DNA from: Thermodesulfobacteriota bacterium
GTDB lineage: Bacteria > Desulfobacterota > Desulfarculia > Adiutricales > JAGVGV01
Direction: 5' to 3'
Assembly (NCBI GenBank): GCA_040755515.1
Contig: JBFMAW010000032.1
Coordinates: 3,148-67,147 of the forward strand
Length of the DNA stretch: 64,000 bases
The notes under the pieces: generated by a model
Told to the model about the DNA's origin: nothing
What the model saw: only the letters and a program-made list of their open reading frames with translations
Database searches by the model: none
In this document: positions 1,525-59,339 of the stretch, in pieces
Position numbering within the stretch: the first letter of the stretch is position 1
Layout of the letters: every line of letters begins with the position of its first letter
Translations under genes and position numbers: made by a program

Positions 1525-1527
1525 GGC

Positions 1528-3320: not shown

Positions 3321-3333
3321 GATGCTCCTCCTT

Positions 3334-3852: not shown

Positions 3853-3855
3853 GGT

Positions 3856-5505: not shown

Positions 5506-5509
5506 CTCC

Positions 5510-10122: not shown

Positions 10123-10124
10123 CC

Positions 10125-13100: not shown

Positions 13101-14696
13101 ATTCAACAACTTGTTCGTGCGGGCCTGGACTTGAATGCTCCTCTGGCTTCCAAGAAGACGGCTTTGGGGCTGGCCGCCGAACTGGGGCATCCGGACATAG
13201 TGCGCCTCCTGCTGGACAAGGGAGCGGACATCAACGAGACCGACGGTCAAGGCCGGACCGCCCTGGATCGGGCCGTGGTAAAGAACCGCGGGGAAGTCAT
13301 AGGACTGTTGGCCAGGCGCGGCGCCGATCTGGATCAGGCCATCGGCCGGGCCGCAGCCAGGAAAGACCAGGCCGGACTCGAGGCCCTGTTGAAAAGTCTT
13401 CCGACTGTTGACGGGCTCGATTCCGGGGGAGACACGCGGCTGATCAAGGCGGCGGAAAGCGGAGACGTGGACCTGTCGCGGGCCCTGATCGAGGCCGGCG
13501 CCGGCCTCGAAGTCCGTGACCGGGAAGGCAGGACGGCCTTTTTCAGGGCCGCGCTCGGCGGCCGGATTCAAACCTTGTCCTTGCTGTTACAAACCGGCGC
13601 CGACGTGGAAACTCGGGACCTGAACGGCTGGACCGCCCTCCACCAGGCCGCCGCCGACGGACGCCTCGAGGTCTTGAACTTCCTGGTGGAAAACCGGGCC
13701 AACCTTGGATCATCGAGTCGGGACGGGTCCACGCCCCTGGCGGTCGCGGCCCGCAACGGACGCCAGGCCGTGGTCCGGCGCCTGCTGGAATTGGGCCTCG
13801 AGGTCAATACGCGCGACCCGGACGGTTGGACGGTTCTGATGACCGCCGCCGCGGCCGGTCAGACAACGATGGTTGACCTGTTAATGTCCCAAGGGGCTGA
13901 AGTAAGCGCGGCGGACCATAGCGGCCGCACGGCCCTGCACCAGGCCGCGGCCGAGGGACATGACCGGATAGTGGACCGGTTGCTGCAAGCCGGAGCGGAT
14001 ATCAACCGGGCCGACGCCCTGGGCTGGACGGCCGTTCATTACGCCGCCGCCGCGGGCCGGCCTCAAACCCTGGACCGGCTGATCGGGCGGGGCGCCGACG
14101 CGACGGTCCGGACCCGGGACGATCTGACCGCCTTGGACCTGGCGGCGAAAGGCGGACGGACCCAGGCCGCGGAGATGCTCCTGAAGCACGGAGCCAAAGT
14201 TCAGGCTTCGTCCCGAGGCGGCTGGACGGCCCTGCATCACGCCGCCGCGGCCGGACGGACGGAAGTCCTGGTCCCGCTGCTCGAAGCCGGCGGCGACGTC
14301 AAGGCCCGGACCCTGTCCGGCCAGACCGCCTTGCACCTGGCCGCCCTGGGCGGTCACGGCCGGATGGCCCTCTTCCTGCTCGAACGGGGCGTGGACAAGG
14401 ACGCGGCCGACCACCTGGGCCTCACCCCCCTGGCCCTGGCCGCCGGGCAGGGCCATTATGACCTGGCCGGACTGCTGATCGCCCGGGGGGCCGAGGTAGG
14501 TAAGAGAGACCGCCTGGGCTGGACTCCGCTGTTCCAGGCCGCGGCTTCGGGTCGTCCCAATCTGGTCAGGCTGCTGTTGGAACAGGGCGCCGACGTCCTG
14601 GCCGCGGACTCGAACGGCCGAACCGCCCTGGCCCTGGCCCAGGCCAATGGCCATAGGGAAGTGGTCGCTCTCCTGGCGGCCCGCCGGCCGAAATAA
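10125..14696 (+). CDS. STAND-type P-loop NTPase (nSTAND-like), single TM helix, WD40 beta-propeller, ~16 ankyrin repeats
   Basis: I prefer the start at ATG 10125, 2 nt after the upstream stop; the track ORF from 10029 overlaps gene 1. The NTPase has YFFGRDNE...LTVLFGQSGLGKTSLLQAGL (Walker A, nt 10296-10322) and VVLVLDQFEELF (Walker B). A hydrophobic helix AMGFFAVLLVLMVIASLVAY (nt ~11454-11516) is preceded by RRKLWRAR. WD40 blades (LRGHRGPVMSLAFSPDGRMLASASTDGTIRTWRV) cover nt ~11796-12824. Ankyrin repeats (GWTALHQAAADGRLEVLNFLVENRANL and similar) run from nt ~13071 to the end. Confidence 0.85.
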   Translation: MPEARKAGPAGIDLNQENPWLGLASYTEDVRDYFFGRDNETIELFRLVKREPLTVLFGQSGLGKTSLLQAGLFPRLRENNFLPVYIRLDHSAEAPDLIAQIKTALAREMAARGVDAPAPGPDETLWAYFHHEETDFWSPKNQLLTVVLVLDQFEELFTLGRTTAENVGRGQALVAELADLIENRPSAALKARLEKDADLARTVSFHKQNYKIVFSLREDYLPHLESLRRQIRPIMSGRLRLTRMNGRQALAAVIEPGRKLLDEDLAVRLVEFVAGSSREGLDLEAASARLEEIEVEPALLSVVCRELNHKRLQSGQDRITAGLLAGSKSEIINDFYETSLRDFSTEVRVFIEERLLTRSGYRDSVALEDFLAVPGVVKAAVEALVNRRLLRLEERFGVTRVELTHDLLTEVIQASRDRRREEERLAREKLQTRELRRKLWRARLAMGFFAVLLVLMVIASLVAYQARNQATAALEKVEDTKAEANIRRGDQARQDKDYGLALLYYCRALRQKDSLAARIGLTEALVRFVPESACGAGQDKGLPAVLGPGVKGLSAGQGVERISLSPDGRQAAIVASKGRVELLDLETGQRRPGPAWSGPGEVTALEWDRTGRVLAVAFFPQAPEGKAAASRKSEEKAPSVTIYNANEQKWMMEWQARTRPKGRRPPAGLDPLADEMERKSRRDNERVTALGFDPTGNSVAWINAGGVLFVWNISAPETGPRSYRTELTETSHRDFSTQVQIFITKNVRCLAWGPGHKLALGTDNRLIKVMDLARGVATAVLRGHRGPVMSLAFSPDGRMLASASTDGTIRTWRVETWSEAGLVRNSTGPVNGLAFTLDGRRLFAADQGGFISLRDAATLREETYLALPRGLQSVVLAAAGPGVMRLVSAAEDNTIFWRDISLDSAADLLARLKPYLEFGLAWDLDANDQPRDVPPATLASKRLEAARAGHIPWLAEGGRREVECFQAAATRAQKEAALQTLAEAVTNRNAEDIQQLVRAGLDLNAPLASKKTALGLAAELGHPDIVRLLLDKGADINETDGQGRTALDRAVVKNRGEVIGLLARRGADLDQAIGRAAARKDQAGLEALLKSLPTVDGLDSGGDTRLIKAAESGDVDLSRALIEAGAGLEVRDREGRTAFFRAALGGRIQTLSLLLQTGADVETRDLNGWTALHQAAADGRLEVLNFLVENRANLGSSSRDGSTPLAVAARNGRQAVVRRLLELGLEVNTRDPDGWTVLMTAAAAGQTTMVDLLMSQGAEVSAADHSGRTALHQAAAEGHDRIVDRLLQAGADINRADALGWTAVHYAAAAGRPQTLDRLIGRGADATVRTRDDLTALDLAAKGGRTQAAEMLLKHGAKVQASSRGGWTALHHAAAAGRTEVLVPLLEAGGDVKARTLSGQTALHLAALGGHGRMALFLLERGVDKDAADHLGLTPLALAAGQGHYDLAGLLIARGAEVGKRDRLGWTPLFQAAASGRPNLVRLLLEQGADVLAADSNGRTALALAQANGHREVVALLAARRPK

Positions 14697-46369: not shown

Positions 46370-46396
46370 GACCCGCCTGGTTGACGCCTTTACCCG

Positions 46397-46442
46397 GGCG
46401 CCGGTCCCCCCCTGGACTGGCGCCTTTTTATTTCCTTTTTTA
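46397..46442 (+). terminator. Rho-independent terminator after ferredoxin
   Basis: GGCGCCGGTCC-ccccct-GGACTGGCGCC (11-bp stem with 1 mismatch) followed by TTTTTATTTCCTTTTTT. Confidence 0.75.
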
Positions 46443-46528: not shown

Positions 46529-46557
46529 TTGACAAGCCTATATTCTAATGGTATATA
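46529..46557 (+). promoter_or_regulatory. Sigma70-like promoter of the gntR/ABC cluster
   Basis: TTGACA, 17 nt, TATATA. Confidence 0.55.
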
Positions 46558-46567
46558 CTTATATACC
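46550..46567. promoter_or_regulatory. Perfect 8-2-8 palindrome overlapping the -10 box; candidate GntR/HutC operator
   Basis: GGTATATA-CT-TATATACC. It contains GT..TA..AC half-sites of the kind reported for HutC-subfamily GntR regulators. Confidence 0.55.
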
Positions 46568-46595: not shown

Positions 46596-47321
46596 ATGGC
46601 GTCGGTACTCAAGGACCATCTCCTGCCCCTGTACATGCAGGCGGCCAAGGAACTGCAGGGCCGAATACAGAACGGCGACCTGAAACCCAACGATCGCCTG
46701 CCGAGCCTGGAACGGTTGGCCGCGGAATTTCATATCTCCCGGATCACCGCCCGCCAGGCCGTTTCCCTCCTCGAACGGGATGGGCTGATCTGGCGCAAGC
46801 AGGGCAAGGGCACTTTCGTTTCCCCGAAATATAAGGCCGAGCCACGGCTGGAGCTGCATACTGACTGGTCCATGATCTCCAGAATGATAGAAGGAACCAC
46901 GGTCAAACTGTTAAAAAAAGCGGTCGTTCAAGAAATTCCAAAATTGTCGCCGACCGCCGGCAAACTGGCCCCGGCCTATACCTTCCTCAAACGAGTCCAC
47001 AGCAAAGACGGTTCACCTTATGGTGTAATTGATATATATCTCGATGAGCGCGTCTATGATAAATCGCCCTTCATCTTTTTAAAGAACCCCATCTTGCCTT
47101 TCCTGGAAAAAGTTCACGATCTAAAGATCAAAAACGCCCGCCAAACGCTCACGGTCGGAAGCGCCAATCTGCAGGCGGCCAAGAATTTGAAAATTGAAGT
47201 CGGCTCGCCGGTGGCCTTGGTCCGGCGCGTCATTTCCGATGAAAACGATACCATCATTTATGTCGGCGACATCACCTACCGGGGGGATTACATCAAGCTC
47301 GAAATAGATATGATCAAGTAA
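46596..47321 (+). CDS. GntR-family (HutC-type, UTRA effector domain) transcriptional regulator
   Basis: 241 aa. The HTH is LPSLERLAAEFHISRITARQAVSLLERDGLIWRKQGKGTFV, followed by a C-terminal UTRA-like domain. Confidence 0.88.
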   Translation: MASVLKDHLLPLYMQAAKELQGRIQNGDLKPNDRLPSLERLAAEFHISRITARQAVSLLERDGLIWRKQGKGTFVSPKYKAEPRLELHTDWSMISRMIEGTTVKLLKKAVVQEIPKLSPTAGKLAPAYTFLKRVHSKDGSPYGVIDIYLDERVYDKSPFIFLKNPILPFLEKVHDLKIKNARQTLTVGSANLQAAKNLKIEVGSPVALVRRVISDENDTIIYVGDITYRGDYIKLEIDMIK

Positions 47322-47354
47322 CATTATCTTCTTAAAGAGACGAAAAGGAGGCCA

Positions 47355-48938
47355 ATGATGAGTAAAGAAGTAAGCCGTCGTAACTTTTTGAAAAGCACGG
47401 CCATCGCCGGCGCCGCAGTGATGAGCGCCGGCGCTCTGCTCGGGATGCCGAAGCAGGCTTGGGCCCAAACGCCTCAATACGGCGGCAAGCTCAAGTTCGC
47501 CATCGCCGACTCGCCGCTTTCCTTTGACCCCGCTTATAACGCCAGTCAATACACCGCCAGATGGTTGGGGTTCTTGCTTTTTGACACCTTGACCTTTCAA
47601 ACGGCCGACATGAAGATCGTCCCCAACCTGGCCACTTCCTGGAAGGTGGTCGATAAAGGCGGCGCCTGGGTTTTTGATCTACGGAAAGGGGTGACCTTTC
47701 ATAACAACCGTGAATTGACCGCCAAAGACGTGGCCGATCACTTCAATCGAGTCATGGACCCCAAATCCGGCTCGCACGTCGCCGCCGCCCTCTTCCCCTT
47801 AAAGAACGCGGAAATCATGGATCAATACACGGTCAAACTCAACCTGACTTCCGCTTATGCCGATTTTCCGGTAACCGTCGCCAAGCCGGACGCGGCCATC
47901 ATCGCCCTGGAGAGCGCGGGACGGGAGACCAAGAATCCCCTAGGCACCGGACCATTCAAACTAAAGGAATTCGTCCCGGGCGAAAAAGTTCTCTTCGAAA
48001 AGAATCCCAAATACTGGAAGAAAGGTCTGCCCTATTTGGATTCCATCGAATGGCTGAATATTCCCGATCCAGCCACCCAGGTGAGCGCGTTGCTGAGCGG
48101 ACAGATTGACAGCTTCCCGGAACTGAGCAAGGACTATTTCGAGGTCTTGAAAAAGAACAACAAGATCGTCGTGGAAGAAATACCCACCGGCGCCCACCAG
48201 CCGGTCGTGATGCAGATGAGCAAAAAACCCTTTAATGACCCGCGGGTGGTCAAGGCGATCAAGTATTGCCTGGACCGGGAAAAATTCGTCGAACTCGTGC
48301 TGAACGGTCATGGCGTAGCCGCCAATGACGTGGCCGTACCGCCCACCGACCCGTTCTACCACGGCATTCCCCTTCGAAAACAGGATTATGCCCTGGCCAA
48401 GAAACTCTTGGCCGAGGCCGGATATCCGAATGGGCTGGACCTTGAATTGATAACGTCAGAGGTTCGAGTAAACATGGTCCCCACGGCCTTGACGCTTAAG
48501 GATATGTGCGCCCCCGCCGGAATCCGCATAAACGTCAAAATGGCCCCGCCGGATACCTTCTGGACCGAGGTATGGCGCGTGAAACCGTTCTTCGTGGGCA
48601 ACTGGGTCGGACGGCCGACCATTCATGACACCCTGTATCCCTTCTTCCATAAGAATTCCTTTGACTGGAATAATCCCGGCGGCGCCAAGGATAAGTTCAA
48701 CGATTGCCATCTATACAACCCGACTCTAAGCGACTTATTGGATATGGGAATGAGTGAAATGAACGACGAAAAACGCCGGGGAATATATAAAATGTCCCAG
48801 GCCGTCATCATGGAGGAAGGCGGTTATATCACTCCCTACGTGGCCAATTATATCATGGCCAGAAGGGCCAACGTCCACGGGCTGGTTCCCCATCCGCTGA
48901 AGATATCCGATTTCTCGACCGTGTGGAAGTCCGCTTGA
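47355..48938 (+). CDS. ABC transporter substrate-binding protein, family 5 (Dpp/Opp/Nik type), Tat signal
   Basis: 527 aa. The twin-arginine leader is SRRNFLKSTAIAGAAVMSAGALLG...AWAQ, followed by a family-5 SBP body. Confidence 0.88.
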   Translation: MMSKEVSRRNFLKSTAIAGAAVMSAGALLGMPKQAWAQTPQYGGKLKFAIADSPLSFDPAYNASQYTARWLGFLLFDTLTFQTADMKIVPNLATSWKVVDKGGAWVFDLRKGVTFHNNRELTAKDVADHFNRVMDPKSGSHVAAALFPLKNAEIMDQYTVKLNLTSAYADFPVTVAKPDAAIIALESAGRETKNPLGTGPFKLKEFVPGEKVLFEKNPKYWKKGLPYLDSIEWLNIPDPATQVSALLSGQIDSFPELSKDYFEVLKKNNKIVVEEIPTGAHQPVVMQMSKKPFNDPRVVKAIKYCLDREKFVELVLNGHGVAANDVAVPPTDPFYHGIPLRKQDYALAKKLLAEAGYPNGLDLELITSEVRVNMVPTALTLKDMCAPAGIRINVKMAPPDTFWTEVWRVKPFFVGNWVGRPTIHDTLYPFFHKNSFDWNNPGGAKDKFNDCHLYNPTLSDLLDMGMSEMNDEKRRGIYKMSQAVIMEEGGYITPYVANYIMARRANVHGLVPHPLKISDFSTVWKSA

Positions 48939-49028
48939 TTAGTTGGTCACATCAAGATATTGGACCGCGGGTCTCCCGTTGCTCGCGGTTCAATATCAAT
49001 ATGCGGGCACCGCGGGGAATCAGGAGAA

Positions 49029-49982
49029 ATGAATAAAATCGCCGAATTGATTCTAAAGCGATTCATCTATCTTATTTTTACCATGCTTTTGGTTTCCATT
49101 ATCGTTTTCTTAATCACCCAGGTCATGCCCGGAGACGTGGCCACGGCCATCCTGGGCCAAAGCGCCACCAAAGAGAACATTGAAATATTAAGAGAGGAAC
49201 TGGGGCTTAATCGCCCCACCCATGATCAATATCTCTCCTGGCTGAAGAATACGGTCAGTTTTGATCTGGGTAATTCCTTGTCCCTCTCCCGGCCCATCGC
49301 CCCAATTCTTTGGGAGCGAATGAAAAGATCGTTATCATTGAGCGGGGTGGCCTTATTCGAGGTCATTGTCATCGGCATATCCCTCGGTATTCTCGCCAGC
49401 CTGAAAAAGGATAAGCCTTTTGATCAAGCGGCCTCCGCCGTGTCCTTCGTCCTTATCTCGATCCCGGAATTCGTTTCCGGCTCACTCCTGATTCTCGTTG
49501 TCGGCGGGGGGTGGTTCAACTTTTTCCCTTCCTCGGGCTACGCCAGCTTGAACGAAGGCTTCGGCAACTGGCTGTGGCACTTGGTTCTGCCCTCGACGAC
49601 CTTGACCATGGTGCTCCTGGCCTATGTGTTGAGGATGATGCGGGCCGACATGATCGAAGTACTCAGACAGAATTACATCCGCACGGCCCGATTGAACGGA
49701 CTGCCGGAATCGCGGGTCATTCTTGTCCACGCGCTGAAGAATAGTTTGATCCCCACGGTCACCTTGCTGGCCAATAATATCGGCTGGATGATCGGAGGCA
49801 TTGTGGTCGTGGAAAAGGTTTTCGCCTATCCCGGAGTGGGACTATTACTGATTCATGCCATTAACTACCGGGATATTCCTCTTATCCAGGCAACCATTAT
49901 GTCCGTGGCCACAATTTATGTTTTGGCCAGCCTGCTGGCCGACCTGGCCTATTTCTACCTGGATCCCAGAACCAGAGATTAA
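49029..49982 (+). CDS. ABC transporter permease (DppB-like)
   Basis: The start MNKIAELILKRFIYLIF follows AGGAG. The sequence is typical of the DppB/OppB family (YIRTARLNGL...). Confidence 0.85.
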   Translation: MNKIAELILKRFIYLIFTMLLVSIIVFLITQVMPGDVATAILGQSATKENIEILREELGLNRPTHDQYLSWLKNTVSFDLGNSLSLSRPIAPILWERMKRSLSLSGVALFEVIVIGISLGILASLKKDKPFDQAASAVSFVLISIPEFVSGSLLILVVGGGWFNFFPSSGYASLNEGFGNWLWHLVLPSTTLTMVLLAYVLRMMRADMIEVLRQNYIRTARLNGLPESRVILVHALKNSLIPTVTLLANNIGWMIGGIVVVEKVFAYPGVGLLLIHAINYRDIPLIQATIMSVATIYVLASLLADLAYFYLDPRTRD

Positions 49983-50016
49983 TAGGGTCGAGATCGGCAT
50001 ATTGAAGGGTCCTCCG

Positions 50017-50883
50017 ATGATGAGGTTAATAAAAAGGCTTTTCGCCTTGACTCAATATAACCGGAAGATCGCCGTCGGCGGCTGCTGCGCCCTGATTTTC
50101 ATTACCATGGCCTTGTTCTCTCCGCTTGTTTATGATTATTCGCGGAATGTAATCAAATATGATGCTTCCAACAGATTCAAGGCGCCGAACCTGTCTCATT
50201 TCTTTGGGACCGATCAATACGGCCGGGACGTTTTCGTTCGGGTCGTGTGGGGAACACGAACCGCGCTGTATCTGGCGGTCTGCTCGGTGCTGATAGGTCT
50301 CTTTATCGGCGTGCCCTATGGAATGCTCAGCGGCTACTGGGGAGGATGGCGCGACGAATTCATGATGAGAATAAACGACGCCCTCTTGAGTCTGCCGGCG
50401 CTGATGCTGGCTTTGTTGATCATAGCCACTTTAGGGTCCAGCCTGGAAAACGCGATCGTCGCCATCGGAGCCGCCTTTGTTCCTCGAGTGGCGCGGATCA
50501 TGAGGAGCTGTGCTATCACCATCAAGAACGAGCAGTATGTCTTGGCGGCCCGCGCCAGAGGAGAAAGCAGTTATTATATTATTTTCAGGGAGATATTGCC
50601 CAACGCCCTCGGCCCGATGATCGTGGAAGGCGGCATCAGGATGAGTTACGCGGTCATGGTCGGGACCTCGCTGAGTTTTCTGGGGCTGGGCACTCAACCG
50701 CCCCAGCCGGACTGGGGTCTGATGATCTATGAAGCCAGACAACAGATTTTTCTGGCGCCCTGGACCCTGATCTTCCCCTCGGTCGCCCTGACCTTGATGA
50801 TTTTGTCGTTCAATACTCTCGGCGACGCGCTGCGCGACACTCTGGACCCCAAGGAAAAGCGTCTGCACCAAAGGAACATTTAA
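50017..50883 (+). CDS. ABC transporter permease (DppC-like)
   Basis: Start MMRLIKRL. HFFGTDQYGRDVF is the characteristic DppC/OppC N-terminal periplasmic motif. Confidence 0.85.
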   Translation: MMRLIKRLFALTQYNRKIAVGGCCALIFITMALFSPLVYDYSRNVIKYDASNRFKAPNLSHFFGTDQYGRDVFVRVVWGTRTALYLAVCSVLIGLFIGVPYGMLSGYWGGWRDEFMMRINDALLSLPALMLALLIIATLGSSLENAIVAIGAAFVPRVARIMRSCAITIKNEQYVLAARARGESSYYIIFREILPNALGPMIVEGGIRMSYAVMVGTSLSFLGLGTQPPQPDWGLMIYEARQQIFLAPWTLIFPSVALTLMILSFNTLGDALRDTLDPKEKRLHQRNI

Positions 50884-52973
50884 TGGACCGTCAGGTAGTT
50901 ATTAACGCCGAGAATTTGTCCATCAGTTTCTTGACCGAGAATGGAAAGCTGCCGGCGGTAAGAAATGTGAGTTTTTCCATCAACCGCGGCGAAACCATGG
51001 GCTTGGTGGGCGAATCGGGATCGGGCAAAAGCACTATCGCCTACGCCTTGATGGGCTATATGCCGCCCAACGCCCAAATCAAAAGCGACCGCCTTGATAT
51101 TCTTGGACAAAATATTCTAGAGCTGAGGAATAACGAGCTAAGAGAGCTGAGAAGAAAAAGCCTGGCCATGGTTTATCAAGATCCGGTGACCTCCCTTAAT
51201 CCGGCCTTGACCATTGGGTTTCAAATCGCGGAGTTGATCCAGTCCTTGGATAATATCAATAAGAAGGCGGCCTTCGAAAAGGGTATCCATTTATTCGACC
51301 TGGTCGGTATTCCCGATCCTCTGACCAGCGCCAAGAAATATCCTCATCAGATGAGCGGCGGCCAGGTTCAGCGTATAGTCATCGCCATGGCCCTCTGCCA
51401 CAACCCTGACCTCTTGATAATGGACGAGCCCACCACGGGCCTGGATGTAACAACCGAGGCGACCGTCCTGGACCTGATAAACGATCTCAAGCAAAAACTG
51501 AATTTGGCCATATTATTTATCAGTCACAATCTCGGAATTATCAGAAAAGTTTGCGATAAAGTTGGTGTGCTATACGCGGGACAGATGATTGAAATGGGTC
51601 CGGTCCGCGATGTCTTTGCCCGGCCGATGAATCCATATACGATTGCCTTGATTGACTGCCTCCCCACTATTTCACAAGAAAAGGATGCGGTTATCAAAGC
51701 CATCCCTGGTTCGTTCCCCGATCTTAAAGAAATAAAGGACGAATGCATATTTTATCCCAGATGCCAATTCGCTCAACCAGTTTGCGGGCAAGGCAGGGTA
51801 GACCCGCGGACCGTCAATGATAGCCGTCAGGTCGCCTGCCTTCGGTGGAAACAGGTCGACTTGATTCATAATACCCAATTTGACCAACAAATAATTACAC
51901 CATCGGATAAAACCATCATCCCCTTGCAAAATGACCGCAACAGGAAGGTGTTCCTCGATCTTTCCGGAATTAGAAAATATTACGGTTCACGTTCGATTCT
52001 GTCGAGAGTGACCGATAAAGATATATCTCTTATAAAGGCTGTCGATAATATTTCGTTGACTGTCGCCCGGGGAGAATCTTTAGGTATCGTCGGCGAGAGC
52101 GGATGCGGTAAAAGCACCCTGGCCGAAATCATTTGCAAGCTGCAAAAACCATCCGATGGATTCATCCGCTATAGAGGAATGGATATATGGAAGATGGTGA
52201 AAAGCGAAGAAGGAAGATACAGGAAGGAATGCCAAATAGTTTTCCAAAACCCCGACTCCTCGCTGAATCCCCGTAAAACCGTCGGTCAAATCATCGAACG
52301 GCCTCTGATATTGTTCAATTATGGTAACCGAGACAAGCGGATGAAACGGGTAATGGAGTTGCTTGATTCAGTCAAGATGGACGAAAGCTGCGTCAAGTCA
52401 TATCCGCATGAACTATCGGGCGGACAGAAGCAGCGGGTCGCCATCGCCCGCGCCCTGGCCGCGGACCCCCTGGTCATAATTTTTGACGAGCCGCTGTCCG
52501 CCCTCGATGTATCCGTCCAGTCCTCAATTCTGAATTTGCTGCGCGATCTGAAGAAAAACATGGAATTGACCTTCATATTCATTTCTCACGACCTGAGCGT
52601 GGTGCGGCACATATGTGAAAAAGTCTCGGTGATGTATTTAGGAAAAATATGCGAAATCGGATACGCGCGAAATATTTTATCTAAACCCTTTCATCCTTAC
52701 ACGGAGGCCCTTATCTCGGCCATTCCACAAATCAGGAACGATCTCGAAAAGGACCCCCAACAAATACGACTGAGCCGGTCTGTTCCCAGTCCGAGAAACC
52801 CGCCGCCCGGTTGCCGCTTTCACACCCGCTGCCATCGACGGATTGGAGCGGTTTGCGAAGAGGAGGAGCCCGGCGCGACTCAACTGGATGAGACCCATAC
52901 GGTTTATTGTCATTTGGCCGGTAGTCGGAATGGAAAATGGATTCACCAACTATTTATTCCGACCAATAATTGA
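50883..52973 (+). CDS. Fused double ATP-binding subunit (DppD-DppF type)
   Basis: 696 aa with two NBDs. Walker A motifs are GESGSGKST and GESGCGKST. Signature motifs are MSGGQVQR and LSGGQKQR. Confidence 0.9.
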   Translation: MDRQVVINAENLSISFLTENGKLPAVRNVSFSINRGETMGLVGESGSGKSTIAYALMGYMPPNAQIKSDRLDILGQNILELRNNELRELRRKSLAMVYQDPVTSLNPALTIGFQIAELIQSLDNINKKAAFEKGIHLFDLVGIPDPLTSAKKYPHQMSGGQVQRIVIAMALCHNPDLLIMDEPTTGLDVTTEATVLDLINDLKQKLNLAILFISHNLGIIRKVCDKVGVLYAGQMIEMGPVRDVFARPMNPYTIALIDCLPTISQEKDAVIKAIPGSFPDLKEIKDECIFYPRCQFAQPVCGQGRVDPRTVNDSRQVACLRWKQVDLIHNTQFDQQIITPSDKTIIPLQNDRNRKVFLDLSGIRKYYGSRSILSRVTDKDISLIKAVDNISLTVARGESLGIVGESGCGKSTLAEIICKLQKPSDGFIRYRGMDIWKMVKSEEGRYRKECQIVFQNPDSSLNPRKTVGQIIERPLILFNYGNRDKRMKRVMELLDSVKMDESCVKSYPHELSGGQKQRVAIARALAADPLVIIFDEPLSALDVSVQSSILNLLRDLKKNMELTFIFISHDLSVVRHICEKVSVMYLGKICEIGYARNILSKPFHPYTEALISAIPQIRNDLEKDPQQIRLSRSVPSPRNPPPGCRFHTRCHRRIGAVCEEEEPGATQLDETHTVYCHLAGSRNGKWIHQLFIPTNN

Positions 52974-53032
52974 AATCGTCCCTCTCGTTTCGGATAACTT
53001 CGTGGGCTAAAGAAATTAAGCGGGAAAGCGAT

Positions 53033-54394
53033 ATGGCCAGACTAAACTTTCATCAGTTTTATTATCAGACTAAAAATGAGATGTTTCCTTTGCCTGTATT
53101 GGAAAAGGTAAAGCTGTGTATATTAGACACTATTGGAGCGATTATCAGCGGGCATTCATCCAAGGCCGGGCCGGCGGCTATTCTTTTCGGTAAAAAAACG
53201 TCCTCGGGTCACGAAGCGACCGTCCTCGGCACCAGCACCAGGATGTCCTGGCCTTATGCCGCTTTCTGCAACGCTATTCTGGGCAGCGCCTGGGACATAG
53301 ATGACGGGTCCTTGTTGGCCCTGGGCCACCCGGGCGCCGCGACGTTATCCGCCGCCCTCGGCGCGGCTCAGCTCACGGGATCAAGCGGGAATGACCTTTT
53401 GAGGTCCGTCCTATTCGGATATGAGATAGCTTTGTTAACCGGATCTCGCTTGAACGCCGTCCCGGACAAGCGCTTTTTCGGTTCCGGGGCTTGGGCCGCC
53501 GCCGGCGCGGCCGCCGCCGCCGGTTATCTGTTGGGATTGGACCTGGAGAGCCTGGTTAATGCCATCGGCCTCGCCGAGGCCCACGCTCCTGTGTCTCCGG
53601 TTGACCAAAGCATTGAAGATGGCGCCATGGTCAAGGAAAGCCTGGGTTGGGCCGCCTTTACCGGAGTGTGCGCCTGTCTATTATCGGCCGCCGGTTTCGG
53701 TGGGATAACGCCTCGCTTTCATGATCGTTCGTTTCCCGCGCTCGAGGAAGTTGATTCCTTTAGGATCTTGAGCATCTATTTCAAAAAATATACCTGCTGC
53801 CGCTGGGGGCACGCCGCCCTGGATGGTGTACTGGAATTAATGGATAGAGATTCTATTGACGCTTCGAAAATAATGGAAGTTACCATTGGAACACACTCCA
53901 AAGGAATGCTGTTAAATGGAAGAAATATAAACAGCCCCGAAAAGGCCCAATACAGCTTGCCTTTTTGTATAGCGGCCGCGCTCGTTGATAAGGAGGTCGG
54001 CCCTAAGCAGGTTTCCCCAAAACGCCTCAATGATCCTATCCTGACCGAAATCATGAACAAGGTGCGATTGGAGGTTGATCCGGAAATAGATGCCGCGTTT
54101 CCAAAATTTAACTCCGCGCGTGTTTCCATCCGTACGGCGCCCGATATCGAATATAACCTGTTCGTCAAAAATGCCAAGGGATCCGAACAAAATCCATTAA
54201 GCCATACCGATATTATCGACAAATTTCTATGGATTACCGACGGCCTTTTATCGAGAAACCAAGCCTTGAGCCTAGTGGAAAGAATTCAGGGCATTGAAAC
54301 AGTGGATAATATAAAGGCTATTTTTGATGAATTGACCATCAACGAAAAAATTGATGACCGCGGGTCTCGCGTTCCTCGTGAGGTTTTACGGTAA
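53033..54394 (+). CDS. MmgE/PrpD-family protein (2-methylcitrate dehydratase superfamily), substrate unknown
   Basis: About 453 aa. VKLCILDTIGAIISG... and the overall length and pattern fit MmgE/PrpD. I prefer the ATG start at 53033 over TTG at 52970. Confidence 0.75.
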   Translation: MARLNFHQFYYQTKNEMFPLPVLEKVKLCILDTIGAIISGHSSKAGPAAILFGKKTSSGHEATVLGTSTRMSWPYAAFCNAILGSAWDIDDGSLLALGHPGAATLSAALGAAQLTGSSGNDLLRSVLFGYEIALLTGSRLNAVPDKRFFGSGAWAAAGAAAAAGYLLGLDLESLVNAIGLAEAHAPVSPVDQSIEDGAMVKESLGWAAFTGVCACLLSAAGFGGITPRFHDRSFPALEEVDSFRILSIYFKKYTCCRWGHAALDGVLELMDRDSIDASKIMEVTIGTHSKGMLLNGRNINSPEKAQYSLPFCIAAALVDKEVGPKQVSPKRLNDPILTEIMNKVRLEVDPEIDAAFPKFNSARVSIRTAPDIEYNLFVKNAKGSEQNPLSHTDIIDKFLWITDGLLSRNQALSLVERIQGIETVDNIKAIFDELTINEKIDDRGSRVPREVLR

Positions 54395-54415
54395 AACTAT
54401 AAGGGAGGACAAGGA

Positions 54416-55864
54416 ATGTCAAATATATGCGGCGAGGAGTTAATACTGCGTACTGCTTACGGGAAGAAGCTTTCGGAAAGGCAATGTCAGAAGCTTTATT
54501 GGGCCTGCCTGGAGATTTTGGAGCGGACCGGCGTGCTGCTTTATGAGGAGGCGGCGATTGATCTGCTGAAATCGGCTGGAGCGATAATAAACGGGAATCA
54601 TGCCCGTATTCCTTCAGGTCTGGTGGAGAAGGCCTTTTCCACGGTTCCCCGGAAAATAACTTTGTGCGACCTGTCGGGAAAACGCAGTATGCCCATTGAA
54701 GGTCGGCGCACCTTTTTCGGGCCGGGCGCTGATTGCCCCTACATAATCGATCATAAGGACAACCAGCGCCGAAGAGCGGTGTTGGGTGATGTCGTTGAGG
54801 GCGTGACTGTCTGCGATTCTTTATCTCACCTTGATTTCGTGATGAGTATGTTCTTGCCGTCCGATGTCGACCAAAGGATCGCCGATAGATATCAGATGGA
54901 AATAATGCTGAAACACTCGACTAAACCGATATTCTTCTGCTCCACGGAATTATCGGGCTGCCAAATCGCCGTCGAAATGGCTGAAGTGGTCGCCGGCGGC
55001 GCCCGGGAGTTGGAAAAGAATCCCCGAATAGCCTGCTATATAAACGTTACCACCGGCCTCCGTCATAACAAGGAAGCCCTGCAGAAGCTGCTGTTTCTAT
55101 CCGAGAAGAGGATACCGTTCTCCTACTGCCCGAACAACATGGGCGGGGTGACCGCGCCGATTACGGTGGCGGCTTCAATGGCCATGTGGCAAGCCGGCGG
55201 CCTGGTGGGGTTGGTTTTATCTCAACTCAAGAAGGAGGGGGCTCCCTTCATAATGCCGGGTTGGGGCGGCAACATGTTGGATATGCGGACAACCGTGCAA
55301 CCATACGCCGACCCTGAAAAGAGAGCCCAGAGTCTGGATTTCGCCCATTATCTGGGCCTGCCGATGTTCAACCAGGCTGGAACGAGCGACTCCAAGGCGG
55401 TCGATCAACAAGCCGCGGCCGAAGCGGCCTTGACCTTGTTCACCGATGCCCTTTTCGGTGGAAACATTGTCCATGACGTCGGTTATCTCGAGTCCGGACT
55501 CAGTTCCTCCTTGGTTCAGTTGGCTATTTGCGATGAAATCATAGACTGGCTGAAGGCGTTCGTTAAAGAAGTGGAAATCTCCGATGAAACGTTATGCCTT
55601 GACTTGATACATGAAATTGGTCCGAACGGCCAGTTCATGCAGACGACGCATACCATGGAGAATTACAAAAAGCGCTGGTATCCCTCTTTGTTTGATCGGT
55701 CGAATTACAACAGTTGGCGGAAGAAAGGCGCCAAAACCCTCCGGGAGCGGGCGACGGAGAAAGTCCAACGGATATTGGCTGAACCCGGAAAAAGCTGCTT
55801 ACCCCAGGATGCGATAAAGGATATCCACGCCATTGTCGAACGGTCGGAAAGAGAATTGAATTAA
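54416..55864 (+). CDS. MttB-superfamily methyltransferase, non-pyrrolysine type
   Basis: 482 aa, uninterrupted, with no in-frame TAG. Family-typical blocks are ILERTGVLLYEEAAIDLLKSAGA...ARIPSGLVEKAFSTVPRK and GGNIVHDVGYLESGLSSSLVQLAICDEII. Confidence 0.8.
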   Translation: MSNICGEELILRTAYGKKLSERQCQKLYWACLEILERTGVLLYEEAAIDLLKSAGAIINGNHARIPSGLVEKAFSTVPRKITLCDLSGKRSMPIEGRRTFFGPGADCPYIIDHKDNQRRRAVLGDVVEGVTVCDSLSHLDFVMSMFLPSDVDQRIADRYQMEIMLKHSTKPIFFCSTELSGCQIAVEMAEVVAGGARELEKNPRIACYINVTTGLRHNKEALQKLLFLSEKRIPFSYCPNNMGGVTAPITVAASMAMWQAGGLVGLVLSQLKKEGAPFIMPGWGGNMLDMRTTVQPYADPEKRAQSLDFAHYLGLPMFNQAGTSDSKAVDQQAAAEAALTLFTDALFGGNIVHDVGYLESGLSSSLVQLAICDEIIDWLKAFVKEVEISDETLCLDLIHEIGPNGQFMQTTHTMENYKKRWYPSLFDRSNYNSWRKKGAKTLRERATEKVQRILAEPGKSCLPQDAIKDIHAIVERSERELN

Positions 55865-55875
55865 GGAGACGAAAG

Positions 55876-56832
55876 ATGCTGGTAGTTCAGGATATCAACG
55901 ATTTAATCGGCCAGACTCCCCTTCTGGAACTCAGAAAACTGTACCCGGGCTCGGTCAAGGCCAAGATCATGGCGAAACTGGAATTGTGCAATCCGACTTC
56001 CATCAAGGACAGGGGCGTCTACTTCATGGTTCGAGAGGCCGTCAAGGCCGGTCAAATAACCCCAGGGACCGAGGTGGTCGAGGCCAGCAGCGGCAATACC
56101 GGCATCGCGCTGGCCAGGGCCGCGGCGACCATGGGATTCAAGGCCAGAATCTATATGAGTGAATTGTGCAGTGTCGAACGATTAAGGATTATGTCCGCCT
56201 ATGGGGCGACCATTGTTCTGACTCCCGCGGCTGAACATACGCGCGGAGCTCGAGAACGGGCGATCGCTTATTGTGAAGCCAACAGGGCCAAAACCTTTTT
56301 CCTTAACCAGCACGGAAACAGGAACAATGGCCTGGCTCATGAAATGACCACCGGACCGGAGCTGTGGACCCAGACGGGCGGAGAACTGGCCGCCATGATC
56401 ATCGGACTCGGAACAGCCGGTACGTTTGACGGGCTCTCGCGTTACCTGAAGTCAAAATCGAAAGACATACGCATAATCGCTTTTGAACCAGCCAAGAGTC
56501 CGGTCTATGCCGGTGGCAAGCAGGGGGTTCACCGGTTGATCGGTATCGGCCCGGGTTTTGTGACCGACAACTTCAAACGCTCCCGGATGAACCTCGATGA
56601 AATTATACACGTAACTGATGAGGATGCCTACCAATTTACTCGAGGGCTGGCCAGGAAAGAAGGCGTGCTGGCGGGTCCGACTTCGGGAGCGGCCGCCTGG
56701 GTCGCCGGCGAAGTCGGCCGACGGGATGAATTCGCGGGCAAGACAATCGTGTGTTTCTTTTACGATAGCGGCGAGCGCTACCTGTCCACGGAAGGATTAT
56801 TTGAAGTCAACAATTGTGAGAAAGCATCTTGA
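55876..56832 (+). CDS. PLP-dependent cysteine synthase / CBS-family (fold type II) enzyme
   Basis: 318 aa. IGQTPLLEL, the PLP-lysine motif NPTSIKDRG, and SSGNTGIALA. Confidence 0.85.
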   Translation: MLVVQDINDLIGQTPLLELRKLYPGSVKAKIMAKLELCNPTSIKDRGVYFMVREAVKAGQITPGTEVVEASSGNTGIALARAAATMGFKARIYMSELCSVERLRIMSAYGATIVLTPAAEHTRGARERAIAYCEANRAKTFFLNQHGNRNNGLAHEMTTGPELWTQTGGELAAMIIGLGTAGTFDGLSRYLKSKSKDIRIIAFEPAKSPVYAGGKQGVHRLIGIGPGFVTDNFKRSRMNLDEIIHVTDEDAYQFTRGLARKEGVLAGPTSGAAAWVAGEVGRRDEFAGKTIVCFFYDSGERYLSTEGLFEVNNCEKAS

Positions 56833-56913
56833 GGCTTGATAGGTGGTTAATCTGTTTTAATTCATCTAAGTTTTTAAAATACTGCTTCCATCAATATTTA
56901 GGAGGTGACCGCC

Positions 56914-57555
56914 ATGTTTGATTTTACTCAAATTAAACAGGCTCTGATCGATCTGGATAGGAATAGAACCCTTGCTTCAGTTAAAAACGCCTTAAATCGA
57001 AACGAAAACCCCCAAGACATTTTAGAACAGGGGCTTATAGCGGGGATGGAAGTTATTGGCGACAAGATGGAAATGGAAGAAATGTTTATTCCTGAAGTAC
57101 TGGCCGCCGCGGATACGATGCGAGCCTGCCTAGACGTGATAAAACCTTTGTTGGGTTCCACGGAGGTATTGAGCAAGGGGAATATAGTGATCGGTACGGT
57201 AAAAGGTGATTTGCACGACATCGGCAAAAATCTGGTGGCGATGATGCTGGAAACCAGTGGCTTCAAAGTTATCAATTTAGGAGTTGATATTCCAACGGAA
57301 GATTTTGTTACGGCGGTTTACCAGAACAGCGCCGACGTTCTTTGTTTATCCGCCCTTTTGACCACTACCATGCCGGTCATGAAAGACGTAATTAATTCAG
57401 TCAGGAGAAGCACGTCCGACAATCGAGTCAAAGTACTTATCGGCGGAGCCCCGGTAAGTCAGGACTATGCTAATAAAATCGGCGCCGATGGCTACGCCCC
57501 GGACGCCGCCTCCGCCGTGAAGGCCGTCAAGTCGCTTTTACACCGGAATAAATAA
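56914..57555 (+). CDS. Corrinoid (cobalamin-binding) methyl-carrier protein
   Basis: B12-binding motifs are GDLHDIGKNLV (DxHxxG), SALLTTTM (SxL) and LIGGAPV. ATG 56914 follows AGGAGG. Confidence 0.88.
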   Translation: MFDFTQIKQALIDLDRNRTLASVKNALNRNENPQDILEQGLIAGMEVIGDKMEMEEMFIPEVLAAADTMRACLDVIKPLLGSTEVLSKGNIVIGTVKGDLHDIGKNLVAMMLETSGFKVINLGVDIPTEDFVTAVYQNSADVLCLSALLTTTMPVMKDVINSVRRSTSDNRVKVLIGGAPVSQDYANKIGADGYAPDAASAVKAVKSLLHRNK

Positions 57556-57752: not shown

Positions 57753-58859
57753 ATGGGAAGAGTGCATAATTTCAGCGCCGGACCGGCGGTATTGCCGGTA
57801 AGCGTGCTGGAGGAAGCCCAGAAGGAATTATTGGACTACAAGGGCGTGGGAATGTCCATCATGGAGATGAGCCACCGGAGCCAGGAATATGAAGCCGTCC
57901 AGTTCGAGGCGGAATCATTGCTGAAGGAATTATTAAGCGCTCCTAATGGATACCGGGTGTTATTTCTGGGTGGCGGCGCCCACACCCAATTCGCGGCCGT
58001 ACCGTTGAACTTTCTGTTTCCGGACGCGGAAGCCGACTACGTGATTACCGGCGGTTGGGCCGAAAGAGCCTACGAAGAAGCCCTTAAGCTCCACGCGGTG
58101 ACGAAATTATGCGGTAAAGCCAATATGGCCTCGAGCTCCAAAGCGACTAATTTCGACCGTATTCCAACCAGGAGTGAAATCAAGCTCAGTCCAAATCCGG
58201 CCTATGTTCATATTACCTCCAACAACACTTTATATGGCACCCAATGGCCGGCCAGGCCTGATTTTGGAAAGAAAACTCTTTTTGCCGACATGTCGAGCGA
58301 TTTCTTGTCCAGACCTTTCGACTTGTCCCAGTTCGCTTTAATCTATGCCGGCGCCCAGAAAAACTGCGGGCCCGCCGGCGTCACCATCGTCGTTTTGCGC
58401 GAAGATATGATTGAAAAAGCCAACAAGAACATCCCGACCATGCTGTCCTACGGGATACACGCCAAAAACAACTCTCGATATAATACACCACCGGTATTCT
58501 CGATCTACATGGTGAGCCTGGTATTGAATTGGCTTAAGAATAAAGGCGGATTAGCCGCCATGAAAAAAATCAATGTCGAGAAGGCCGGCTGCGTCTATGA
58601 GGCGATAGATAACAGCGGCGGCTTCTACCAGGGCCACGCCCGGAAAGACAGCCGTTCGATGATGAACATTACCTTTAGGTTACCCACCGAAGAACTGGAA
58701 AATAAATTCGTCGACGAAGCCAGGAAATCAGGGCTGGTTGGCCTGAAAGGTCATCGTTCGGTCGGCGGTATAAGAGCATCCACTTATAATGCCTTACCGA
58801 TTCAAGCCTGCCGGGACTTGGCCTCTTTTATGGGAGATTTCCAAAAGAACAATGGTTGA
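57753..58859 (+). CDS. serC: Phosphoserine aminotransferase
   Basis: MGRVHNFSAGPAVLPVSVLEEA...MSIMEMSHRS matches the SerC N-terminus. The track ORF starts 4 codons earlier at a TTG. Confidence 0.9.
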   Translation: MGRVHNFSAGPAVLPVSVLEEAQKELLDYKGVGMSIMEMSHRSQEYEAVQFEAESLLKELLSAPNGYRVLFLGGGAHTQFAAVPLNFLFPDAEADYVITGGWAERAYEEALKLHAVTKLCGKANMASSSKATNFDRIPTRSEIKLSPNPAYVHITSNNTLYGTQWPARPDFGKKTLFADMSSDFLSRPFDLSQFALIYAGAQKNCGPAGVTIVVLREDMIEKANKNIPTMLSYGIHAKNNSRYNTPPVFSIYMVSLVLNWLKNKGGLAAMKKINVEKAGCVYEAIDNSGGFYQGHARKDSRSMMNITFRLPTEELENKFVDEARKSGLVGLKGHRSVGGIRASTYNALPIQACRDLASFMGDFQKNNG

Positions 58860-58868
58860 AACTAGACT

Positions 58869-58905
58869 AAAAAGGAGGCGGCGCCGGCCGGCCCCGCCTT
58901 CTTTA
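58869..58905. terminator. Bidirectional rho-independent terminator between serC and cytochrome c3
   Basis: AAAAA-GGAGGCGG-cgccggccggcc-CCGCCTTC-TTT. The GC-rich stem is flanked by an A-run and a T-rich run, and lies between convergent genes. Confidence 0.65.
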
Positions 58906-58931: not shown

Positions 58932-59339
58932 TCACTGCTTCTCGGCGTGACACTCGTTGCATTTGGCTTCCGGACCCTTGCCTTGTTTCTTATGGCAGCC
59001 CCGGCAGTTGTTGTGAAAGGCGTTCTGGAGCTTGTCTATCTTGCCTTCCTTATTCTTCTTGTGACACTCGTCGCATTTCTGGACCGGGTCGCCTTCCTTC
59101 CAGTTGTTGGTCTTGCCGTCGTACTTGGCGTCATGGTGGCATTCGACGCAGGCGACTTTGTGTTCATCAACGTGCTTCTTGTGAGTGAACTCGACCGGTC
59201 CCTTGGTGTGTTTGCCGAAGGTTTCGGTCTTATAGATTTTGACCGTGTCCGGCTGATCGGCGGCCACAAGCAGACCAGCGGCGAAGACGGCGACCAGGAA
59301 AGCGGCTAAGCAGAAACAGATCAAGCCCTTACCTTTCAT
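58932..59339 (-). CDS. Tetrahaem cytochrome c3 (class III)
   Basis: 135 aa with a signal peptide and four CxxCH motifs (CVECH, CDECH, CRGCH, CNECH). Confidence 0.9.
   Translation of the reverse strand: MKGKGLICFCLAAFLVAVFAAGLLVAADQPDTVKIYKTETFGKHTKGPVEFTHKKHVDEHKVACVECHHDAKYDGKTNNWKEGDPVQKCDECHKKNKEGKIDKLQNAFHNNCRGCHKKQGKGPEAKCNECHAEKQ

Follow-up and report, generated by a model that had tools for sequence, protein, structure and literature searches.

A predicted ten-gene operon with a non-pyrrolysine MttB homolog and a PrpD-like enzyme in a Thermodesulfobacteriota bacterium

A stretch of 64,000 nucleotides from contig JBFMAW010000032.1 of a Thermodesulfobacteriota bacterium (hereafter the window, numbered from its first nucleotide) was examined for an array of ten genes on the + strand, which spans 46.5–58.9 kb from a HutC-type repressor gene to serC with all open reading frames (ORFs) intact. 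The array encodes a Dpp-type importer, an MmgE/PrpD-family member (PrpD-like below), a non-pyrrolysine (non-Pyl) homolog of the methyltransferase MttB, a CysK-like enzyme and a corrinoid protein (CoP). Non-Pyl MttB homologs number in the thousands and control how much of the carbon of methylated osmolytes becomes trimethylamine, methane or acetate in sediments and guts; to our knowledge, only a handful of their substrates are known. The association of an MttB homolog, a corrinoid protein, a binding-protein-dependent importer and a PrpD-like protein was found to be real and general, recurring at loci other than the window.

Gene content and boundaries of the operon

The features of the locus, with the profile matches that identify them, were as follows.

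46396–46425, + strand: terminator-like hairpin (12-bp stem, nine G-C pairs, T-run) at the end of the upstream host operon and the left edge of the low-GC block
46529–46567, + strand: promoter-like −35 TTGACA and AT-rich −10 region, the latter overlapping the palindrome at 46550–46567
46596–47321, + strand: GntR-family regulator of the HutC subfamily, with a GntR helix-turn-helix and a UTRA effector domain (PF00392, 1.7e-18; PF07702, 7.8e-15)
47355–48938, + strand: family-5 solute-binding protein (SBP) with a twin-arginine translocation (Tat) signal (SBP_bac_5, 1.9e-85; TAT_signal at threshold, SRRNFLK)
49029–49982, + strand: ATP-binding cassette (ABC) permease, DppB/NikB-like (BPD_transp_1), with an AGGAGA ribosome-binding site (RBS) before ATG 49029
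50017–50883, + strand: ABC permease, DppC/NikC/GsiD-like (BPD_transp_1, profile search)
50883–52973, + strand: fused double ATPase of the DppD/DppF type with two ABC_tran and two oligo_HPY domains, the start of which overlaps the permease stop
53033–54394 (ORF from 52970), + strand: divergent MmgE/PrpD-family protein (PF03972, 130 bits; PF19305, 114 bits)
54416–55864, + strand: non-Pyl MttB-superfamily methyltransferase, predicted MT1 (methyl transfer from substrate to Co(I)-corrinoid protein; PF06253, 282 bits)
55876–56832, + strand: CysK-family fold-type-II pyridoxal phosphate (PLP) enzyme of a distinct subfamily, between the MttB and corrinoid genes
56914–57555 (ORF from 56905), + strand: corrinoid protein, cap helix bundle and Rossmann B12 domain (B12-binding_2, B12-binding), with an AGGAGG RBS before ATG 56914
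57753–58859, + strand: phosphoserine aminotransferase SerC (NF003764, 499 against a cut-off of 253; TIGR01364, 494.5 against 443.6)
58871–58904, no strand: G+C-rich palindrome (22-nt arms, 91% complementary) between the convergent SerC and cytochrome c3 genes, at the right edge of the block

The first-pass annotation of this DNA, made from the sequence without database searches, had described nine co-directional genes under a GntR/HutC regulator, and ORF listing and profile searches located all nine, intact, where they had been reported. All ten ORFs were full length against their profiles, and domain E-values across the array ranged from 1e-15 to 1e-85, so that chance matching is of no concern. 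When the gene junctions were read, a good RBS was found before every gene, and the RBS positions make 49029, 53033 and 56914 the likely true starts of the first permease, the PrpD-like protein and the corrinoid protein respectively. Intergenic gaps were no longer than 90 bp as far as the corrinoid gene. There was no terminator-like site between the corrinoid gene and serC, and a palindromic terminator lies 3' of serC; the unit therefore runs one gene further than had been reported, to SerC (57753–58859), which is probably co-transcribed with the rest. From these signals, the single promoter-like site and the low third-position G+C content that the genes share, the ten genes are predicted to be one operon, and the palindrome at 58871–58904 to be a bidirectional terminator. 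Just 5' of the regulator gene lies the palindrome GGTATATA-CT-TATATACC (46550–46567), which has perfect arms, occurs as a single copy in the window and was produced in 0 of 100 shuffles; it is a plausible candidate for a HutC-type operator.

The composition of the block is foreign. Its G+C content is ∼0.51 compared with ∼0.64 in the flanks, and the G+C content at third codon positions (GC3) is 0.53–0.70 in the block genes compared with 0.71–0.86 in the flanking genes; SerC, the last gene of the block, has a GC3 of 0.62, and its nearest relatives are not from Desulfobacterota. High G+C content resumes at both sides, which indicates an insertion rather than an assembly chimera, and horizontal transfer is the probable origin of the block. 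Its edges carry neither a tRNA nor an integrase, and no direct repeats flank it. A locus free of the island was sought through SerC and the flanking glycyl-radical enzyme and was not found, both proteins being too widespread (matches at up to 61% identity for the former, and at 66–71% in many phyla for the latter).

The regulator reached none of the NCBIfam equivalog cut-offs. The importer has a complete set of Dpp/Opp/Nik-type parts, namely an SBP_bac_5 protein, two BPD_transp_1 permeases and an ATPase with oligo_HPY, and scored far below the cut-offs for every named specificity (DppA, OppA, NikA, GsiB and CntA). The best named models of the SBP were GsiB (159 against a cut-off of 594), NikA/Opp5A, DppA and CntA. 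Assignment of a ligand class from solved structures was also tried and was dropped, as the best PDB matches were weak and mixed (an SBP solved without ligand, YliB/GsiB and AgaA, which binds opines).

The MttB homolog, its corrinoid partner and its clade

The MttB homolog has 482 amino acids, of which residues 17–481 align with positions 32–499 of the 500 in PF06253. The ORF is uninterrupted, as had been claimed, with no in-frame UAG, and Thr323 aligns with the Pyl (X) of 7XCL. The protein scored 320 bits with TIGR02369, the model for Pyl-dependent trimethylamine methyltransferase (cut-off 525), and is 26% identical to MtgB and 25% identical to Pyl-MttB. Among 5.8 billion proteins there was a single match of 71% identity, located on a 2-kb contig, followed by a very large clade at 60–67% identity drawn mostly from Desulfobacterales and Anaerolineae/Chloroflexota. 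The substrate pocket was compared in an alignment of the window protein, 119 clade members and three solved structures. Residues are given in the order of the equivalents of MtgB Y97, MtgB R312, Pyl334 of Pyl-MttB, MtgB H348 and MtgB F356.

Window MttB homolog: A105, F318, T323, H353, G361
Clade at 60–71% identity: S, F, C (in 113 of 120), H, G
MtgB: Y97, R312, L, H348, F356
4YYC: Y, R, L, H, G
Pyl-MttB: V, Y, Pyl334, Y, G

R312 of MtgB is reported to be conserved in all superfamily members of known function and to form salt bridges with their acidic substrates (PMC13080624). The equivalent Arg was absent both from the window protein (Phe318) and from its clade (Phe in 120/120), which argues against the known acidic quaternary amines as substrate. 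The cation-pi pair Y97/F356 of MtgB was not retained in the window protein (A105 and G361), and H353, the H348 equivalent, was kept; the four MtgB positions Y97/R312/H348/F356 (PMC13080624) read A/F/H/G, in agreement with the earlier proposal of an MttB/corrinoid system outside the characterized specificities. Among the 120 proteins, Ala and Thr occupied two of the pocket positions in the window protein alone. It was set apart from MtpB, MtcB, MtyB and MthB by the published conserved-Arg criterion (PMC13080624) rather than by a joint tree; judged in this way it did not fall inside a clade of known specificity, the placement that had been named beforehand as evidence against the proposal. The clade of the window protein is large and uncharacterized, and these data suggest that it lies outside the characterized specificities.

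The clade has a further peculiarity at the Pyl-equivalent position, which is Cys in 113 of the 120 members and has an invariant His and Phe close by. This conserved pocket thiol has no counterpart in MtgB or Pyl-MttB, and is replaced by Thr in the window protein alone.

The corrinoid gene product carries the DxHxxG motif quoted for it, in the form GDLHDIG, and its structure matches were 1y80 and MttC. The best NCBIfam model was MtgC_2, the glycine-betaine corrinoid protein, at 226 bits against a cut-off of 370. It is predicted to be the cognate partner of the MttB homolog.

The pair resembles the MtgB/MtgC/MtgA (+RamA) system of Desulfitobacterium hafniense (PDB 2QNE/9YCE) in placing a non-Pyl MT1 beside a DxHxxG corrinoid protein in an anaerobic host, and the same mechanism, Co(I) attack on a methyl of an onium centre, would be expected. 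Apart from the low identity and the pocket, in which only H348 is kept, the window differs from that system in having a Dpp-type rather than a betaine-type importer, no methyl-corrinoid:tetrahydrofolate methyltransferase (MT2) or activase nearby, and the PrpD-like, CysK-like and SerC proteins as extras. With MtpB, MtcB, MtyB and MthB of Eubacterium limosum (proline betaine, carnitine, gamma-butyrobetaine and phosphocholine) it shares the superfamily and the use of one MT1 per substrate to feed a corrinoid protein, whereas those enzymes keep the R312-equivalent Arg for the acidic substrate (PMC13080624) where the window protein and its clade have Phe. Pyl-dependent MttB/MttC (PDB 7XCL/7XCN) has the fold and the corrinoid partner in common with the window, as well as Gly at the F356 equivalent and an aromatic residue at the R312 equivalent (Tyr, compared with Phe in the window), and differs in its UAG codon, for which the window protein has Thr323.

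Loci of the MttB clade were fetched (44, of which 43 were clustered; orthologs 60–67% identical). Neighbours of MttB in the 43 loci were a corrinoid protein in at least 20, pterin-type MT2 in 12, an AsnB-like amidotransferase in 12, a metallo-beta-lactamase (MBL)-fold protein in 11, a CN-hydrolase in 8 and a RACo activase in 4. In L013/L051–L054 a family-5 SBP, two permeases and a fused ATPase, 41–55% identical to the window importer, lie directly 3' of the MttB ortholog, with fumarate-reductase and fumarase genes before and an arginase-family gene after the importer; Dpp-type genes also adjoin MttB in L002, L022, L023 and L040. A PrpD-like gene was found inside the Dpp operon 3' of MttB-MttB-CoP in L002, and at the head of RACo-MttB-CoP-MT2 in L009.

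Two arrangements in this set deserve separate mention. In L051:4310–19430 (= L013) the MttB gene and Dpp-type importer belong to a co-directional array under a GntR/FCD regulator. Genes for fumarate reductase/succinate dehydrogenase subunits, a class-I fumarase, TauE and an arginase-family ureohydrolase are part of the array, a hint that the substrate of that clade has a C4-dicarboxylate or guanidino connection. A conserved Desulfobacterales operon, from which the window layout differs, has the order MttB'-AsnB-MBL-MttB''-CoP-MttB-[MT2]-CN-hydrolase (L003–L005, L007, L010, L012, L015, L017, L019, L021 and L043; for example L010:5485–12975). In it three MttB paralogs surround one corrinoid protein, a MarR is divergent, and pterin MT2 and CN-hydrolase are often added; the operon may demethylate its substrate in successive steps that involve amide chemistry.

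A PrpD-like subfamily beside MttB systems

Both the N- and C-terminal MmgE/PrpD Pfam domains are present in the PrpD-like protein. Identification as the 2-methylcitrate dehydratase PrpD was rejected, as the scores were 47 bits with NF042438 (cut-off 950) and 19 with TIGR02330 (cut-off 458). The best homolog among the 5.8 billion proteins was 35% identical, and a genome scan with the protein returned no match. The nearest solved structures were iminodisuccinate (IDS) epimerase and cis-aconitate decarboxylase. The best-scoring relatives were proteins of the MttB loci L002 and L009, followed by those of the OpuAC/BHMT-like loci L048–L050. The latter, which come from aerobic relatives, encode an OpuAC binding protein, a ProV-type ATPase, a PF02574 (Bhmt/MtgE-like) methyltransferase and a DAO oxidase; PF02574 proteins of this kind belong to betaine demethylation (PMC12478193).

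A metagenome scan with an alignment of the PrpD-like subfamily gave 80 loci, 40 of which were at least 10 kb in length. The genes lying within 8 kb in these 40 loci were compared with those of 142 control loci, which had been fetched for SerC or the glycyl-radical enzyme, were of similar or greater length and came in many cases from the same phyla.

PrpD-like loci, 10 kb or longer (n = 40): MttB 30, corrinoid protein 18, pterin MT2 13
Control loci (n = 142): MttB 0, corrinoid protein 0, pterin MT2 0

The common order in the subfamily loci was MttB-(CoP-MT2)-[ABC importer]-PrpD-like-(CN-hydrolase or a ∼1,500-aa protein). Of the 80 loci, 31 encode an OpuAC-type binding protein and ∼18 have Dpp-type genes; counts of 'Opu' genes from an ATPase query were discarded since control loci also matched it, and the binding-protein count was used. 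The partnership of MttB with a PrpD-like enzyme and a binding-protein-dependent importer, proposed from the window alone, is therefore found elsewhere, and the subfamily appears to be a helper enzyme that regularly accompanies MttB systems. No paper linking MttB with MmgE/PrpD proteins was found in the literature searched. The first-pass annotation had also suggested a larger peptide or opine as substrate; Dpp-type systems do occur beside the subfamily, but its usual importer is of the OpuA betaine type, which weakens that suggestion as a general rule.

The conserved active-site set of the MmgE/PrpD family is H85, D88, H99, H150, K198 and K266 in the numbering of IDS epimerase (PMC12290011). 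The window protein retains D88, H99 (the catalytic base) and K266 (the enolate stabilizer), and K198 as well, though shifted by one alignment column. In place of H85 and H150 it has Ser and Phe respectively, and Tyr145, the second base of the epimerases, is absent; other MttB-linked members of the subfamily have Asn for H85 and retain H150. The two-domain fold and the equivalents of His99, Lys266, Asp88 and Lys198 are thus held in common with IDS epimerase and (S)-(R)-methylsuccinate isomerase, which are cofactor-independent and act at a carbon next to a carboxylate, while identity is low (about 70 bits) and the H85, H150 and Tyr145 positions differ. Owing to these substitutions the substrate is probably not a plain 1,4-dicarboxylate. 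The retained residues are consistent with enolate-type chemistry next to a carboxylate, by which the protein would carry out an epimerization, an isomerization or a beta-elimination.

Betaine catabolism needs a PLP-independent epimerase because a quaternary nitrogen forms no Schiff base, and HpbD, the hydroxyproline-betaine 2-epimerase of betaine catabolism, is a member of the enolase superfamily. HpbD offers a precedent for the kind of role proposed here for the PrpD-like enzyme; its fold is unrelated, and it has no sequence or experimental link to the locus. A cofactor-independent enzyme may have been recruited for the same reason, since a quaternary or N-alkylated nitrogen cannot use PLP.

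Several other features of the subfamily loci and of one further PrpD-like relative were recorded. In 13 metagenomic loci the gene directly 3' of the PrpD-like one encodes a ∼1,500-aa protein whose sole match, a weak one, is to a SIS domain; it alternates there with the CN-hydrolase (L231, L240, L247, L251, L254 (for example 9376–13923), L255, L257, L263, L273, L288, L292 and L293), and a 1524-aa ORF was also noted in L006. In the P0145 locus a PrpD-like relative is flanked by a Dpp-type importer, a saccharopine-dehydrogenase-family gene and an AlaDH/PNT-type gene; this relative and the window protein both have Ser at H85 and a residue other than His at H150, and the locus has the look of a catabolic cluster for an opine-like iminodiacid. 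In six of the PrpD-like/MttB-CoP-MT2 loci (L247, L251, L254, L273, L288 and L293) a second MttB has a fold-type-I PLP enzyme of Cys/Met metabolism beside it. This enzyme was considered as an independent link to sulfur metabolism and was rejected, as all six loci have one layout and probably represent one lineage.

Proposed pathway and alternatives

The window also encodes secretion genes, HdrA-like, sulfite-reductase-like and DsrMK-like genes, and a glycyl-radical enzyme with its activase, which indicates that the host is an anaerobic sulfur-metabolizing bacterium. We favour, with middling confidence, a substrate-inducible catabolic operon that was acquired as a block by this anaerobe and that imports and demethylates a methylated compound. 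The substrate is best read as a methyl-onium or N-methyl amino-acid-like compound, an amino-acid-like skeleton being suggested by the type of importer and the PLP enzyme; to name aspartate-like, sulfonium or aminopolycarboxylate candidates is speculation.

The following scheme is inferred as regards the kind of substrate, the direction in which flux runs and what the PrpD-like, CysK-like and SerC proteins do. The HutC-type repressor would occupy the promoter until its UTRA domain binds either the substrate or an intermediate, and the Tat-exported SBP and the Dpp-type ABC system would then import the compound. The MttB homolog, as MT1, would take one methyl off an onium or N-methyl centre and load it onto the Co(I) form of the corrinoid protein, and genes elsewhere in the genome would supply the MT2 and the reductive activase that complete the cycle. 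The PrpD-like enzyme would use the His/Lys machinery of its family to deprotonate the carbon next to the carboxylate, and would thereby epimerize or isomerize the substrate or the product of its demethylation, or carry out an elimination on it. As additions specific to this locus, the CysK-like enzyme and SerC would act on a primary-amine product by beta-replacement or beta-elimination and then by transamination, and so route it into cysteine/serine metabolism.

Several observations weigh against this scheme. The CysK-like gene and serC were present in 0/44 MttB-clade loci and 0/80 PrpD-subfamily loci, and the evidence for a pathway role of their products is their position in the operon. Conservation of the MttB, PrpD, CysK-like and SBP combination was accordingly not borne out in the loci searched: the MttB homolog, corrinoid protein, SBP importer and PrpD-like protein recur, whereas the CysK-like protein and SerC never do, and the CysK-like link is the weakest part of the earlier hypothesis. 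No second example of the exact cluster was found in the databases searched, a look-up of the window's own protein returned no entry, and no sequencing runs were listed with which co-transcription could be checked. The usual MttB partner of the PrpD-like subfamily belongs to another clade, 29% identical to the window protein, which is also Arg-less and has the pocket signature G-Y-L-H-M. The window PrpD-like protein, 33–35% identical to the rest of the subfamily, is its most divergent member, and with the loss of two carboxylate-binding His residues its function may differ. Finally, a search of the window with related-locus MT2, RACo, DUF1638, AsnB, MBL, CN-hydrolase, DAO and SoxA proteins as queries detected one MttB gene and one corrinoid gene and nothing more, so that pterin-type MT2, RACo-type activase and DUF1638 were not found; the reported lack of MT2 and RamA genes in the cluster thus extends to the whole 64 kb, unlike related loci, which carry MT2 or activase genes beside MttB. 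Profile annotation of the other large ORFs of the window likewise gave no URO-D-type or MetH-like gene. Either these functions are encoded elsewhere or the acquired system is incomplete.

The main rival explanation treats the operon as a mosaic, in which the importer, PrpD-like protein, MttB homolog and corrinoid protein are the functional unit and the CysK-like protein and SerC are captured passengers from cysteine/serine biosynthesis. It is possible, if unlikely. In addition to the absence of both genes from related loci, the CysK-like protein is ∼45% identical to solved O-acetylserine sulfhydrylases (OASS) and has, as had been quoted, the PLP-lysine motif NPTSIKDR and the Asn loop SSGNTG when aligned to OASS 5XA2, and SerC exceeds its equivalog cut-offs. 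The CysK-like gene, however, lies between the MttB and corrinoid genes, starts 11 bp after the MttB stop with a strong RBS of its own, and shares the composition of the block. Its product also scores below the cut-offs for cysK (302 against 351), cysKM (309 against 344) and CysM (241 against 413). The subfamily to which it belongs is widespread (closest relatives at 75–79% identity, more distant ones at 57–64%), and its members adjoin SDF, TctC, TRAP/TAXI or amino-acid ABC transporters, LysR/GntR regulators or a sulfatase. Among the annotated neighbours of these 57–79% relatives there was no serine acetyltransferase, and MttB, corrinoid or PrpD-like neighbours were never seen.

That the block was transferred without MT2 and activase genes, leaving a remnant or silent acquisition with no working methyltransferase pathway in the host, is considered improbable. 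The foreign composition, the lack of MT2, activase and DUF1638 in 64 kb, and a neighbourhood rich in defence genes and hence probably variable would all fit. Ten intact full-length ORFs with strong RBSs and a plausible regulated promoter do not, and MT2 and activase genes are often unlinked: the MtgBCDE components of Ruegeria pomeroyi are separate ORFs, although in other marine bacteria they are often colocated (PMC12478193). This split methionine synthase/glycine betaine demethylase, MtgBCD(E), provides an example of components that can be dispersed in a genome, and it differs from the window in its aerobic hosts and MtgB-type MT1, with no PrpD-like or CysK-like partner described there (PMC12478193).

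Metabolism of an opine-like or metallophore-like aminopolycarboxylate is held to be quite improbable. SerC would here supply O-phosphoserine, and the CysK-like enzyme would make or break an N-(2-amino-2-carboxyethyl) linkage in the manner of SbnA; the protein resembling IDS epimerase would epimerize an iminodiacid, a nickel/opine-type ABC system would move it, and the MttB homolog and corrinoid protein would add or remove an N-methyl. The pairing of SerC with a CysK-like enzyme fits this scheme, as do the nickel, glutathione and staphylopine systems among the best named models of the SBP and permease, AgaA among the PDB matches, IDS epimerase as the nearest solved structure of the PrpD-like protein, and the P0145 relative with Ser at H85 between Dpp-type importer and saccharopine-dehydrogenase-type genes. 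Yet the CysK-like protein scored 183 bits with the model of the SbnA family, whose members condense O-phosphoserine with glutamate (TIGR03945, cut-off 350), the transporter equivalogs were all far below cut-off, and no exporter, opine dehydrogenase or nicotianamine-synthase-like gene was present. A HutC-type repressor with an importer is moreover the usual catabolic layout, and most related PrpD-like loci are paired with OpuA-type betaine importers. Synthesis of 2,3-diaminopropionate of the SbnA/SbnB type, by the CysK-like protein and a downstream gene of the ornithine cyclodeaminase (OCD) family, was rejected on the SbnA score. The OCD gene itself was rejected as an SbnB partner, since it has host-type composition and lies beyond the terminator and the convergent cytochrome gene, beside the glycyl-radical enzyme.

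Least probable is an ordinary system for glycine betaine or another characterized quaternary amine (MtgB/MtpB/MtcB/MtyB/MthB-type). The superfamily is the same, a corrinoid protein is adjacent and MtgC is its best model; against this stand the 26% identity to MtgB, the loss of the conserved Arg and both cation-pi aromatics (PMC13080624), the MtgC score of 226 against 370, and an importer that is not of the betaine type.

The preferred reading, a catabolic demethylation operon, can be extended to the subfamily as a whole, although the extension is doubtful. The PrpD-like subfamily would be a general accessory of non-Pyl MttB (and BHMT-type) demethylation, serving as a cofactor-independent epimerase or onium-eliminating lyase for chiral betaines or sulfonium/ammonium carboxylates. 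The window operon would be a derived version for a substrate class without the usual acidic anchor, and its demethylated product a beta-substituted alanine that the CysK-like enzyme would convert with sulfide to cysteine in a sulfidogenic host. 

The occurrence of the subfamily beside MttB systems, which is common and statistically clear, points to an unrecognized pathway step, for example a stereo-inversion or an elimination. The joining, in this one operon, of an MttB system with a sulfur-amino-acid PLP enzyme and SerC hints that methyl-onium catabolism is linked with cysteine/serine metabolism in a sulfidogen. The most useful by-products of the analysis are the association of PrpD-like proteins with MttB and the two large Arg-less MttB clades, which probably act on another chemical class.

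Elsewhere in the window, type I-E CRISPR-Cas genes (Cas5, Cas7/CT1975, Cse1 and Cas3) occupy 847–8227 on the − strand. They are followed on the + strand, at 8731–14696, by genes for a SIR2-TIR protein and then a 1555-aa nSTAND1 NTPase-WD40-ankyrin protein, which are probably defence genes beside the CRISPR-Cas locus. Convergent with serC, at 58932–59339 on the − strand, is a gene with host-like GC3 for a small secreted protein with four CxxCH motifs, of the tetraheme cytochrome c3 type. The OCD/mu-crystallin family gene lies beside a glycyl-radical enzyme (785 aa) and its radical-SAM activase (59376/59535–63855). The glycyl-radical enzyme is 66–71% identical to homologs in many phyla, and may belong to a hydroxyproline-dehydratase-type system.

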